From an uncultured Gammaproteobacteria bacterium (GTDB lineage: Bacteria > Patescibacteriota > Patescibacteriia > UBA11705 > DATKZF01): DNA of 64,000 bases. The stretch is taken from contig CAYPKD010000002.1 of NCBI GenBank assembly GCA_964411255.1, positions 34,100-98,099 of the forward strand, in the 5' to 3' direction. Positions 1 through 5,066 of the stretch are shown piece by piece (within the stretch, counting starts at the first letter, position 1; each line of letters opens with the position of its first letter). The notes beneath the pieces were generated by a model. It was not told where the DNA came from, did no database searches, and was given only the letters and a program-made list of their open reading frames with translations. Position numbers and translations under genes: made by a program.

Positions 1-800
1 TACCAAGGCAGATGGAGTCGGGCGCCTGGTCAGTGCTGGATGAGGTTAATACTTCAGAACCCCAAGTTTTGGTTCGTTTGAACCGGCCAATGGAAAGAGG
101 CGGAGATCTTGTTTTGCATGAGGATGGTTCCAGAAAGGTGACAAGACATAAAAATTTCAGATTGGTTGCCACAGTTAATCCACCAGGGGGAAGATATAAA
201 GGAAGAGTGCCATTGTCAGCTGAATGGATTTCCAGATGGAATTATCAAAATGTAGGATCATTGCCTTCTGAAACGAGAGCTGAAAGAATGATGGCAGCAG
301 AGGGCGTGCCATTAGAAGAAGAAATGACAGTGGATGTAGCATTATTCGAGCCAGAAAGTGAACTTAAGCCAGAAGAAAAATTATCAGATTATTATGAAGC
401 TGACTGGATTAAGGATTTGTTTTTAAAATATGCTATTTTTGCAGATTCAGTTCAGAAATTGATTGTAAAAAGAGAGATTGCCAAAGATCAAAAGCAGACA
501 TTTGACTTTGATCAAAGAGATGATCAGCGATTCAGGGAATATTTAAGAAAGTTCAGAAGATCAGGTGATATGAAAGGAGTTATTCAGGAAGCACTTGAAT
601 ATATTTTTATGAATAAATTGACAAAAGCTGAAGACAGAAAAAAAGTACAAGACGCAGCAGATTTGAATAAGGTTGATGAACCAAAGGAAAAGATCCCAAC
701 AGGTGATAAGGCGATGGAGAAAAGACTAAGAGCAATGAAAGCCGGTCTGCTAGGCGTTGGTATGGCTGAAGATCATGAGGATGCGATGTTAGGGAAATAG
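1..800 (+). CDS. AAA+ ATPase, MoxR/AAA_5-like, C-terminal part (5' end lies before the window)
   Basis: Reading frame open to window edge; motifs LHEDGSRKVTRHKNFRLVATVNPPGG resemble AAA_5 (MoxR/CbbQ-type) lid region; immediately followed by a vWA gene (classic MoxR-vWA pairing). Confidence 0.55.
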   Translation, partial: PRQMESGAWSVLDEVNTSEPQVLVRLNRPMERGGDLVLHEDGSRKVTRHKNFRLVATVNPPGGRYKGRVPLSAEWISRWNYQNVGSLPSETRAERMMAAEGVPLEEEMTVDVALFEPESELKPEEKLSDYYEADWIKDLFLKYAIFADSVQKLIVKREIAKDQKQTFDFDQRDDQRFREYLRKFRRSGDMKGVIQEALEYIFMNKLTKAEDRKKVQDAADLNKVDEPKEKIPTGDKAMEKRLRAMKAGLLGVGMAEDHEDAMLGK

Positions 801-955
801 ACTTGGTTTTTGTCCTTAATCTTGTAGCATGTAACCTATAACACGTAGCACTTAACACATAGCAAATGCGAGTTTGAGCCAGCAGTATTGAAGTTAGAAT
901 AATAAAATGTTCCGAGCGTAGTCGAGGGACTCCAATTAATTTTTGACTTAATTTT

Positions 956-3389: not shown

Positions 3390-3470
3390 TTTGGCAATAG
3401 TAATACCACTGCTTTAGGTTATACAGGATTTTACAAAGAGATTTCTCCATTCCGCTTCGCTTCAGTCGAA

Positions 3471-5066
3471 ATGACAAAACAGGGCAGCGGCAAAACACCT
3501 ATGGTATTTGAAAAAATTCCAAAACCAGAAAAGGCAGAAAAGAAATCAGAAGCCAAATCAAAAGCTGAGCAGGATAAATCCCTTGCTCAGGTTTTAGAAT
3601 TAGCCAGAAAAAGGAGAAAAGCTGAAAGAATACAGTTAACACCTGATGAGGATAAGCGGTTATTTTTAATTTTAACAAAAGCAATTAAAGCAGAAAAGGC
3701 TGGAGAATTGGCAAAAGCAATTGAGTATTATTCTGAATATAAACAAGAGTTATTAAAAATAAAAGAAGCAAATGAAGAAAAGGAACGACTTAAAGAAGGG
3801 TTTGAGGTCGATGTAACTGAGTATTTAGAATTCGGAATTCCAGGTGAGCCTGTTCCTGATAATGGTGGTATTGTTTTCTTAGCAAATGAAAAAGGCTTGC
3901 ATTATTTGATAAATGAAAAAAATGAAAAAATCGGCAATCCAATTGTCGATGCTAGTGAAATGCACAAGCCAGTTAAGGCAAAAGGTGATTATTGGTGTAT
4001 AGTTAAACCACGAATAGGTGAAGATGAGCCAGGAATTGTAAATATAAATACTCGTCAAAAAACAACTTTTTGGAATAAACGCTTCGACCCACCGGCTCCA
4101 CATGAACCTGAAAGAATTTTATCTATAAATGATAATATATATGTGATAGTTGAGGCTGGAATGGGAAGCGGAGAATTAATTGATCTAGATGATAATAGGG
4201 TGTTATTCAATGGGGAATATCATCAGGTTAGCCCTCCTCTTTTTAAAACCTGGGATATCATAAAGGGTGAACAAAAAGAGTTTTTAATTGATGAAAAAGA
4301 TAATGAGCGCAGTAAAAAATATAATAGAATCAATCAGCTTGTAGAGACGAAGGGAGAAATTTATTTGTCAGTTCAAGAAAAAAAGAAATCATTAATTGGT
4401 CAGTCGAAAAATATTGAGTTTGTTACTGATTCAGCTGGAAAAAGAATAGGGAAGCAATATCAAGAAGTGCTAAAATTAAAGGAAGTAAATGGTAAGCCAA
4501 TGTTTTCTGTTTTTCATAAAGGAAAATATTTTTTAGTTAATCACAAAGGTAAGAGGGTATCAGAAAAATTTGACGATATAGTTTTGGATTTTGAGATTAT
4601 TGAAGACACAACATATTTTATAACTCAACCAGAACCAGAAAAAAAGTTTCAACCTATTACCGTCTCAGATGATAAGCGCGGCAAGATTGCTGAGTTTTTA
4701 GTAAAAGAATTTGAGTCTACAGATAATATTGGAGGGAAATTATATATTACTTGCCGTAAAATGATTGAAGGCCCAAGGGGGACAATGCTTGATGGCAGAT
4801 TTGTTGTTGATGAAAATGGAAGAGAGATAGTAGATGGAAGTATTTTCGATCCTCAGAAAGTATATGATTTTAATAATAAATTTTACTGCCATGCAAAGGA
4901 CAAAGAACATAGGCGTGATGTTTTATTAGATGAAAAAGGTCAAGAACTTACTGCCATGGCTAATATTTTTTATGTTAAGCAAGATGAAGATGGCAGGATT
5001 TATATAATTGGCAGGGAAAAGCGCGGAGATAAAATTTATTATGTTAAGAGATTTATAGAGGGTTGA
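3471..5066 (+). CDS. MIT-like N-terminal helical module fused to ~430 aa of beta-rich repeats (WG-repeat-like KGKYFLVNHKGKRV units)
   Basis: N-terminus LTPDEDKRLFLILTKAIKAEKAGELAKAIEYYSEYKQELLKIK shares the module of the 5206/5896/6534/48006/49161 paralogs. Confidence 0.6.
   Translation: MTKQGSGKTPMVFEKIPKPEKAEKKSEAKSKAEQDKSLAQVLELARKRRKAERIQLTPDEDKRLFLILTKAIKAEKAGELAKAIEYYSEYKQELLKIKEANEEKERLKEGFEVDVTEYLEFGIPGEPVPDNGGIVFLANEKGLHYLINEKNEKIGNPIVDASEMHKPVKAKGDYWCIVKPRIGEDEPGIVNINTRQKTTFWNKRFDPPAPHEPERILSINDNIYVIVEAGMGSGELIDLDDNRVLFNGEYHQVSPPLFKTWDIIKGEQKEFLIDEKDNERSKKYNRINQLVETKGEIYLSVQEKKKSLIGQSKNIEFVTDSAGKRIGKQYQEVLKLKEVNGKPMFSVFHKGKYFLVNHKGKRVSEKFDDIVLDFEIIEDTTYFITQPEPEKKFQPITVSDDKRGKIAEFLVKEFESTDNIGGKLYITCRKMIEGPRGTMLDGRFVVDENGREIVDGSIFDPQKVYDFNNKFYCHAKDKEHRRDVLLDEKGQELTAMANIFYVKQDEDGRIYIIGREKRGDKIYYVKRFIEG

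Follow-up and report, generated by a model that had tools for sequence, protein, structure and literature searches.

A Patescibacteria AAA+/vWA locus as a possible retroelement-free form of a three-gene sensor, ATPase and protease machine

Introduction

Pairs formed by an AAA+ ATPase and a protein with a vWA domain have been described in several settings. They define the MoxR-vWA ternary conflict systems (Kaur et al. 2020, eLife, PMC7159879), of which versions diversified by diversity-generating retroelements (DGRs) are known (Dore et al. 2024, PMC10907252). The candidate phyla radiation lies outside the set of organisms that Kaur et al. used for their multicellularity statistics (PMC7159879). 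In that radiation the commonest DGR targets are AAA-CLec fusions (PMC10907252, citing Paul et al. 2017), "UVR4" DGR targets match a midasin domain (Wu et al. 2018, PMC5758913), and the targets have been called featureless, cytoplasmic and of unknown function (bioRxiv 10.1101/2020.04.01.020958). Here, we analyze a locus at the left end of a stretch of 64,000 nt (the window: forward strand, positions 34,100-98,099 of contig CAYPKD010000002.1, assembly GCA_964411255.1) from an organism represented solely by metagenome bins. It encodes an AAA_5 ATPase, a 660-aa protein that joins a zincin-like domain to a vWA domain, a 149-aa protein (p149), and a set of paralogs that share an N-terminal module, which we named MIT-N. 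We suggest that the locus is a retroelement-free version of a three-gene sensor, ATPase and protease machine of Patescibacteria, with sensor paralogs acting in trans, an explanation that we consider about evenly poised between right and wrong.

The AAA-CLec targets are the nearest of the described systems, and the locus would be of the same AAA+/vWA-centred, DGR-linked kind. Its ATPase is a clear homolog of the ATPases that bear a variable repeat (VR) (phmmer E 1e-20 to 1e-185), and two sister loci carry a full DGR at the same place. In contrast, the window ATPase is a short form of 467 aa without the hypervariable C-terminal domain, and the locus is without reverse transcriptase (RT), template repeat (TR) and locus-linked Avd. 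We found no description of the zincin-vWA protein, its partner of about 140 aa or the module-tagged paralogs in the DGR literature, of which Paul et al. 2017 was not covered.

The four ternary systems of Kaur et al. share with the locus an AAA+ ring, a vWA adaptor with a metal-ion-dependent adhesion site (MIDAS), whose residues are intact in the window protein, one or more further components, hypervariable ligand-binding domains and a peptidase, here a predicted one. They differ in having a CoxD-derived AAA+ instead of an AAA_5 protein resembling midasin and CobS, in their third component, which is p149 here, and in carrying the VR on the vWA protein and not on the ATPase; the zincin domain N-terminal to the vWA domain belongs to the present family, and the hosts are multicellular bacteria in one case and Patescibacteria in the other. 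Jumbo phages also encode an N-terminal metallopeptidase fused to a vWA domain beside a MoxR-clade AAA+ (Iyer et al. 2021, PMC7824862), but a role in virion assembly was proposed for them, whereas the present genes are chromosomal and DGR-linked and their peptidase domain matches no phage record. Midasin/Rea1 offers the closest solved structure for the ATPase, and the same order of AAA_5, charged linker and MIDAS; fused versions, described below, also exist. Unlike midasin, the locus has a single AAA_5 module per chain, its MIDAS on a separate protein, a zincin domain in addition and no link to ribosome biogenesis in its context. CobS/CobT likewise combine an AAA_5 ATPase with a CobT_C vWA domain behind a charged linker, yet the window ATPase scores far below the CobS model, there is no match to the CobT N-domain, and the Pfam annotation of the contig extending upstream of the window contains no CobN or other corrin-pathway gene.

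A conserved triad linked to retroelements

We scanned one genome per species and analyzed the neighborhoods of 80 loci, most of them from the Patescibacteria group and some under other bin names, with our own analysis of open reading frames (ORFs) and hidden Markov models (HMMs). Of these, 33 were well flanked, with at least 3 kb upstream and at least 7 kb downstream. An AAA_5 homolog lies beside the vWA gene in 60 of the 80 loci and in 29 of the 33 well-flanked ones, which bears out the initial annotation of the two genes as a conserved pair. The commonest order is vWA gene, then ATPase gene. Clustering of the neighbors revealed a small protein (median 136 aa) whose gene comes immediately 3' of the vWA gene in 47 loci, and two smaller clusters (9 and 4 loci) include the p149 orthologs; altogether about 60 of the 80 loci have a small gene next to the vWA gene on this side, and in 41 it lies between the vWA and ATPase genes. 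The p149 orthologs were taken from the loci, as a word-indexed homolog search gave just 2 proteins, and p149 itself has no match in Pfam or the PDB. Its alignment to the family of about 136 aa gave an hhalign probability of 95.8 % (E 8e-9, 132 columns). This homology and the recurrence of the small gene make p149 the conserved third component. The initial annotation had expected that component among the variable repeat proteins directly downstream; the gene after the core does bear variable repeat or binding domains, but the conserved third gene is p149. Hence, the conserved unit is a triad of zincin-vWA protein, protein of about 140 aa and AAA_5 ATPase. It is chromosomal, occurs in many lineages of Patescibacteria next to differing housekeeping genes, and is widespread in these reduced genomes.

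The triad is linked to DGRs. An RT is encoded in 34 loci (21 of the 33 well-flanked ones), with the hallmarks of DGR enzymes (GIPLGNLTSQ, YADD; Pfam RVT_1 E 1e-24), and a bAvd-like gene in 16 (bAvd confirmed by Pfam). A repeat scan identified TR/VR pairs of 111-139 nt in 31 loci, with 79-100 % of the mismatches at template adenines. In 25 loci it is the ATPase gene that carries the VR, at its 3' end, and the ATPase of these loci has 560-938 aa. A frequent second target, of about 320-340 aa, is a free-standing copy of the C-terminal 270 aa or so of the ATPase (43-61 % identity). These findings match the AAA-CLec and "UVR4" targets known from the literature. The tie to hypervariable binding domains supports part of the conflict-system proposal, as it is a hallmark common to the NTP-dependent conflict systems (Kaur et al. 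2020).

Sister loci and the window lineage

The loci closest to that of the window (homologous loci and contigs are designated by L-numbers, L001 being the contig that extends the left edge of the window upstream) form a clade of seven, with vWA proteins 46-59 % identical to that of the window. All seven have a p149 ortholog 3' of the vWA gene, and the gene order of the clade departs from the usual one. In L006 and L007 it is ATPase(VR)-TR-RT-vWA-p149-MIT-N gene, the first and last genes being partly seen in L006, whose sequence starts too late to show the ATPase and breaks off behind the N-module. L010 reads RT-vWA-p149, and L011 reads RT-vWA-p149-MIT-N gene, with two further MIT-N gene copies that are each preceded by a Fic-domain gene. 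The RT gene is directly 5' of the vWA gene in L006, L010 and L011. A module-headed gene follows p149 in L006, L007 and L011, and in L007 and L011 it is itself a DGR target, with 13 of 14 and 21 of 25 VR mismatches, respectively, at template adenines. Over 335 aa, the MIT-N protein of L007 shares 47 % identity with the C-terminal sensor region that its own ATPase carries. In L012 the gene 3' of p149 has a degenerate helical N-terminus and WD40 repeats. We also observed that the pairs of Fic gene and VR-bearing MIT-N gene of L011 (363-2402 and 8170-10209) flank its RT-vWA-p149 core on both sides, that the Fic motif HPFxDGNKR can be spotted by eye, and that all three target copies match a single template repeat.

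The window lineage differs from these relatives. No RT homolog was found in the window among all ORFs of at least 40 aa (E<=10), the ATPase is without a C-terminal VR domain, and no TR, RT or locus-linked Avd is present at the locus. Relatives of the ATPase mostly have 600-790 aa (at least 600 aa in 47 of 54 complete relatives). The window ATPase and the other short form, the 464-aa protein of L101, stop in the alignment exactly where the C-terminal sensor region of the long forms starts, and in L101 an MIT-N gene lies directly 3' of the ATPase gene. These comparisons suggest that in the window lineage the ATPase lost its sensor domain, the RT and TR disappeared, and the locus came to be ringed by module-sharing paralogs. 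The binding domains of these appear to differ, as they comprise LRR, beta-rich and helical types and one tail resembling a DGR variable repeat.

This tail closes the 363-aa paralog. Its last 38 aa (nt 48981-49094) are 26-66 % identical among orthologs, as against 67-88 % for the first 325 aa, and keep the scaffold GGVC.S.W.R…L.W…VR.SVRI. We found no TR for it in the window, in L001 or in L086-L102, and no RT lies beside its ortholog in a sister genome. Just 3' of ackA, a 23S_rRNA_IVP gene (8338-8727) scores 13.6 bits with the bAvd model (cut-off 40). The 23S_rRNA_IVP family is a four-helix bundle related to the Avd of DGRs; the gene matches just one of the 16 Avd proteins of the loci, weakly (E 6e-5), and a second copy in the window (39205-39504) shares with it 73 % nucleotide identity over 300 nt.

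The ATPase and the zincin-vWA protein

AAA_5 is the only Pfam model that the ATPase matches. In a PDB profile search its closest solved structures are midasin (E 1e-66, summed over modules), CobS (9e-10) and NorQ (1e-5), with CbbQ also among them; its family affinities include GvpN as well. The Walker A motif (GEAATGKS) lies upstream of the window, and the Walker B motif (VLDE), TVNP and SRW inside it. With the CobS equivalog TIGR01650 (NCBIfam) it scores 40.1 bits against a cut-off of 558.55. By its sequence, the ATPase belongs to the MoxR clade as broadly defined by Iyer and Aravind but is midasin/CobS-like rather than a CoxD-derived MoxR, so that the label "MoxR-type" of the initial annotation is a loose one. 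Its N-terminus (MEKFDPSELVAPLEEE...) contains, as judged by eye, neither the WxhapG nor the PsWRxa motif of the VMAP-type MoxR ATPases. A conserved helix near its end (DKAMEKRLRAMK, with EKNMQKLLRALK in L101 and a partial counterpart in L007) presumably resembles the MIM1 consensus, and we take this as a lead only. MIM1 is the motif bound by MIT domains in ESCRT systems.

The 660-aa protein has 155 homologs, of which the named ones come from Patescibacteria (Magasanikbacteria, Moranbacteria, Berkelbacteria). H90, E91 and H94 do not vary across 24 diverse homologs, E121 and D122 are nearly invariant, and among 109 full-length representatives HExxH is retained in 106 and DxSxS in 101; such conservation means that HExxH is no chance match. 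A search with residues 1-275 gave 509 representative clusters, almost all of 600-850 aa and with the domain at the N-terminus. No Pfam peptidase or DUF model matched the N-domain of any of 62 members at E<=0.05. The AlphaFold2 (AF2) model built from the alignment of these 62 sequences (pLDDT 89.1) runs from three short strands through the HExxH helix to a long helix carrying E121 (residues 113-132), and the motif NxxE[DE] is found in 72 of 106 representatives. HExxH on an alpha-helix after a small beta-sheet is the feature expected of a gluzincin-type zincin fold, and Foldseek matched the model to minigluzincins (probability 0.82-0.85, with non-significant E-values). The two methods agree in kind, and in the model the motif is embedded, as the initial annotation had envisaged, in a metallopeptidase-like fold; with a match of this moderate strength, the domain is best described as a remote, unclassified predicted zincin. 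It is a putative protease effector, as both the motif and the modelled fold suggest peptidase activity.

The vWA domain (residues 454-649) matches Pfam CobT_C (E 5.7e-9; 36.4 bits, cut-off 21), and its MIDAS residues D463, S465, S467 and D573 are invariant in the 24 homologs. Two giant proteins, P0287 (3123 aa) and P0317 (2105 aa), fuse AAA_5 modules and a midasin lid with a zincin-like HExxH domain, and P0287 additionally carries HEAT repeats and a vWA domain; both are midasin-like fusions of bacteria. The fusion of AAA_5, zincin-like and vWA parts in one chain supports their physical cooperation.

The shared module and its paralogs

The proteins of 77, 237, 231, 531, 228, 210 and 213 aa all start with the same module of about 65-75 aa, MIT-N (…SLESQLKMARPRRxEVKRVPLTPEEKEFLGEIMDKAVAAEKAGEL…YTDYKNELLKIK), in which the basic ARPRR motif is conserved. 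L001 and the window together span 73 kb and contain at least nine module genes. Nineteen module residues are invariant across 42 sequences, with a mean column identity of 21 % over the whole alignment. Between paralogs the synonymous differences of the module are saturated (pS 0.5-1.0) and the nonsynonymous ones few (pN 0.05-0.33; dN/dS 0.04-0.26 where dS is computable), which points to old and strong purifying selection and not to recent gene conversion. Two flavors of the module can be seen, …VPLTPEEKEFLGEIMDKAV… (in the 237-, 231-, 210-, 213- and 363-aa proteins) and …V/IxLTPD/EEDKRLFLILNKAI… (77, 531, 228 and 408 aa). They may correspond to two docking specificities.

MIT-N is restricted to a narrow lineage. 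A protein search identified 55 proteins, many of them on four contigs of 206-365 kb, which may represent one or several genomes, and the rest on short contigs; a metagenome scan found 17 loci, 15 from one sample group (contig names Ga01804xx). The co-occurrence of the ATPase-vWA pair with module-bearing proteins, which the initial annotation had put forward as a check, is confined to a narrow clade, which comprises L006, L007, L011, L101 and the window lineage.

The affinity of the module itself is less clear than the label "MIT-like" would suggest. Pfam MIT (PF04212) scores 13.6-23.1 bits on the four downstream proteins, all below the gathering cut-off of 30, and a PDB profile search with the module reached the MIT domain of Vps4/SKD1 at E 0.09-0.5 beside matches to TPR/PPR motifs. 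In the AF2 model of the 213-aa paralog (pLDDT 90.7) two short helices and a long helical hairpin precede an LRR solenoid. From profiles and model together, the module could be called a "MIT/TPR-like hairpin" at most, and its MIT identity is not established. The leucine-rich repeats that had been annotated in the downstream paralogs are confirmed by structure for the 213-aa protein, whose modelled solenoid matches solved LRR proteins, and for that one paralog only; this domain resembles the secreted effectors and adhesins SlrP, YopM and internalins. The 228-aa paralog is 40-41 % identical over its full length to the 210- and 213-aa ones, which are 49 % identical to each other, and the 408-aa paralog has repeated matches to the LRR parts of all three. 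The WG repeats annotated in the 531-aa protein found no support, as neither Pfam (E<=1) nor self-BLAST detected them or any internal repeats. Its C-terminal region of 420 aa is beta-rich and has no Pfam match. Two homologs of the 531-aa paralog are arranged in tandem in L099. The paralogs show by eye hydrophilic N-termini, with no signal peptide or transmembrane segment.

We further observed that the 77-aa protein is a stand-alone N-module and that the 120-aa protein is similar to the 237- and 231-aa proteins in their C-terminal part. The 77/120 pair (L001 6226-6969) thus matches both ends of these paralogs without the middle, and probably represents a split or decaying paralog.

Gene order and other features of the window

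Longer contigs were retrieved by an exact match to the 660-aa protein, so that the locus could be read past the left edge. The part upstream of the window spans 3.6 kb and contains, in order, the genes for a PduL-type phosphotransacylase, the 77-, 120-, 237- and 231-aa proteins and the complete ATPase. The ORF list of the window continues with the ATPase fragment, the 660-, 149-, 531-, 228-, 210- and 213-aa genes and ackA (acetate kinase), with 139 nt between the 531- and 228-aa genes. The initial annotation is confirmed for the ORFs, for both motifs (HEGSH and DLSGS), for the gene couplings and for the overlap with ackA (Table 1).

Table 1. Positions of the genes, domains and motifs of the locus and of the distant paralogs (window coordinates, unless a contig is named)
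Feature	Position	Strand	Remarks
Complete 467-aa ATPase gene	L001 8442-9845
ATPase C-terminal part, 265 residues (aa 203-467 of 467)	3..800	+	Pfam AAA_5, E 1e-5
Conserved tail helix of ATPase	705..740	+	DKAMEKRLRAMK; EKNMQKLLRALK in L101, partial in L007
ATPase-vWA spacer, 155 nt	801..955	.	Site of DGR template repeat and reverse transcriptase in closest relatives
660-aa zincin-vWA protein	956..2938	+	HEGSH aa 90-94, DLSGS aa 463-467
Zincin-like N-terminal domain (aa 1-265)	956..1750	+	HEGSH nt 1223-1237; E121 nt 1316-1318
E/K-rich, highly charged linker of vWA protein, about 190 aa	1751..2314	+	Variable length, gapped among homologs
vWA domain, CobT_C type	2315..2938	+	DLSGS MIDAS motif nt 2342-2356
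p149, 149-aa gene	2940..3389	+	Begins 1 nt past vWA stop
531-aa paralog	3471..5066	+	N-module aa 31-112 (nt 3561-3806), MIT-N HMM E 9e-37
228-aa paralog: N-module and LRR-like C-terminal domain	5206..5892	+	N-module 5206-5420; MIT-N HMM E 3e-44
210-aa paralog: N-module and LRR-like C-terminal domain	5896..6528	+	N-module 5896-6110; MIT-N HMM E 1.5e-45
213-aa paralog: N-module (helical hairpin aa 30-94) and LRR solenoid	6534..7175	+	N-module 6534-6750
ackA	7172..8290	+	ATG overlaps stop of 213-aa gene by 4 nt; Pfam acetate kinase E 6e-111
363-aa distant paralog: N-module and hypervariable C-terminal tail	48006..49097	+	N-module 48006-48220; MIT-N HMM E 1e-42
408-aa distant paralog: N-module and long LRR-like array	49116..50342	+	N-module 49161-49375; MIT-N HMM E 2e-34

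The true start of the 408-aa paralog is probably the ATG at 49161. A block of about 10.5 kb (paralogs, ATPase, vWA, p149, paralogs) sits between pduL (L001 5684-6244) and ackA. These two genes belong to one pathway and their adjacency might be expected, so that the block resembles an insertion or expansion between them; it is co-directional with the housekeeping genes pduL, ackA, murJ and glyS (L001), and its GC content is the same as that of the surroundings. The ackA gene occurs in none of the 80 genome loci and follows MIT-N genes solely in the same-lineage contig L092, hence the link to ackA that was initially drawn is a local accident of gene order. Operon structure is unproven, because a scan for promoters and terminators was indistinguishable from shuffled sequences. 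The Rfam scan of the window gave no match.

Elsewhere in the window, seven copies of a 62-75-nt element (19920-31148) have a perfect TTGACA, a 17-nt spacer and a TG-extended TATAAAT, and most copies have GGAGG and ATG; they resemble a strongly conserved promoter/leader cassette before several genes. An ORF of 104 aa (52979-53293), GIY-YIG nuclease-like by eye (YVYIM…YIGVT), is flanked by 89-nt direct repeats that are 91 % identical (52889-53416), and two further pairs of GC-rich direct repeats of 66-72 nt, about 435-500 nt apart, lie at 55328-55975 and 60631-61173. The repeat-flanked ORF and the GC-rich pairs may be small mobile or structured elements.

Discussion

In MoxR-clade AAA+/vWA pairs (midasin with Rsa4 or Ytm1, CbbQ/CbbO, NorQ/NorD, CobS/CobT), the MIDAS grips an acidic residue of the partner and the ring remodels that partner. 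We propose that the present family works on a comparable scheme, in which a sensor with a variable domain would act on a transducer (ATPase, vWA protein and p149) and this on an effector, the zincin domain. In the window lineage the paralogs would be sensor subunits in trans that dock on the core through their shared module. Capture of a ligand would be relayed to the ATPase ring and the MIDAS domain, and ATP-driven remodelling could then activate the zincin effector or present a substrate to it. The observations behind this proposal are the triad, its DGR linkage, the zincin-like and LRR folds and the presence of the module on DGR targets in sister genomes. From them we infer docking, the direction of signalling, proteolysis and a function in conflict or in interactions with a host.

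Several observations weigh against this proposal. Many module genes are more than 10 kb away from any AAA_5 or vWA gene (L087, L089, L099 and positions 48-50 kb of the window), and their clustering at the locus could be a simple tandem expansion. A close relative, L009, has the order ATPase-vWA-p149 followed by unrelated genes, i.e., the triad without a module neighbor. The docking of sensors in trans is suggested by position and evolution, and no sequence counterpart of the module was found: a BLAST hint of likeness to the C-terminal tail of the ATPase (E 2e-4) disappeared with hmmsearch (E 2.9), and hhalign gave a probability of 1 % for homology of the module to the leaders that head free-standing DGR targets of distant lineages, which makes the module clade-specific. 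E121 is a candidate third zinc ligand by virtue of its conservation and its placement on a helix of the model. Finally, PADLOC gave no significant match to known defence families, so that a role in conflict could be suggested by analogy only.

Other explanations account for part of the same evidence. The paralogs could be clients of the machine, in which case the vWA protein and ATPase would recognise the N-module as a leader, pro-peptide or targeting signal, the zincin domain would cleave it off, and the machine would mature or deliver the host-interaction effectors of an episymbiont. Effector families served by one handling machine typically combine a conserved N-module with divergent C-termini, the LRR domain has its likeness to SlrP, YopM and internalins, a peptidase-like domain is fused to the adaptor, the ARPRR motif is basic and conserved, and the metallopeptidase-vWA and MoxR pairs of jumbo phages were proposed to process structural proteins (PMC7824862). 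Yet the locus encodes no membrane or secretion component (Pfam, window and L001), the paralogs show by eye no signal peptide or transmembrane segment, and the MIT-N protein of L007 copies the sensor domain of its own ATPase, as expected of a subunit better than of a cargo; we regard this explanation as rather unlikely. A housekeeping role, as a chaperone or cofactor-insertion machine like CobS/CobT, NorQ/NorD, CbbQ/CbbO or RavA/ViaA with unrelated, lineage-specific paralogs around it, is unlikely too. A chaperone would hardly be the main target of hypermutation, as the ATPase gene is in 25 loci, those machines have nothing that corresponds to the conserved zincin domain, and a module gene comes directly after p149 in L006, L007 and L011, in the latter two as a DGR target. 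The affinities to CobS, CobT_C, NorQ, CbbQ and GvpN would fit such a role, but the CobS score is 40 bits instead of 558, and neither a CobT N-domain nor, in the Pfam annotation of L001, a CobN or corrin-pathway gene accompanies it. The wide distribution of the triad in reduced genomes, its orientation along with pduL, ackA, murJ and glyS, and the paralogs located far from any triad are also in line with housekeeping.

The initial proposal for this locus, namely that it belongs to the MoxR-vWA ternary conflict systems described by Kaur, Burroughs, Iyer and Aravind and that MIT/LRR proteins supply its third component, now seems to us very unlikely. A broad-MoxR-clade AAA+ does adjoin a MIDAS vWA protein, the family is linked to DGR hypervariation as are some of the published systems, and variable repeat proteins lie directly 3'. 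Nevertheless, Pfam detected no VMAP, iSTAND, FtsH or vWA-fused beta-propeller in the window and L001, PADLOC returned no match, the AAA_5 ATPase is nearest to midasin and CobS and has by eye no WxhapG or PsWRxa motif, the conserved third gene is p149, and the candidate phyla radiation was left out of the organism set behind the statistics of that study. That the block is a remnant of a phage or other mobile element, i.e., a virion-assembly module as in jumbo phages, either CobS/CobT-like or of the MoxR and metallopeptidase-vWA type, seems to us hardly credible, even if group 2.2 jumbo phages have the same domain architecture, the block looks like an insertion between pduL and ackA, and PHROG families match the ATPase (phrog_249, E 7e-11) and the vWA C-terminus (phrog_1576, E 9e-13). 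In a tblastn search of 50,697 phage records the vWA domain was matched weakly (23-28 % identity, CobT-like) and the zincin domain not at all, no phage structural genes are nearby, the GC content equals that of the surroundings, and the triad is a chromosomal unit that many lineages of Patescibacteria have conserved, amid varying housekeeping genes.

If the locus is indeed a retroelement-free machine with sensors in trans, a broader proposal, possible but in our view doubtful, is that the three-protein NTPase machine is the chassis of the dominant DGR of Patescibacteria, and that here DGR diversification was replaced by germline-encoded, module-tagged LRR and other sensors. This would amount to a switch between "adaptive-like" and "NLR-like" repertoires of recognition on the same signalling core. 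The commonest DGR target of the candidate phyla radiation, the AAA ATPase, has two companions, a zincin-vWA protein and a small partner protein, which turns it into a part of a defined three-part machine whose plausible output is proteolysis. The window provides a natural experiment, as it holds the same core without the retroelement, and its components are cloneable. DGRs are unusually abundant in bacteria that belong to the candidate phyla radiation, and the system bears on how cytoplasmic, DGR-diversified sensors may be used by ultra-small bacteria.

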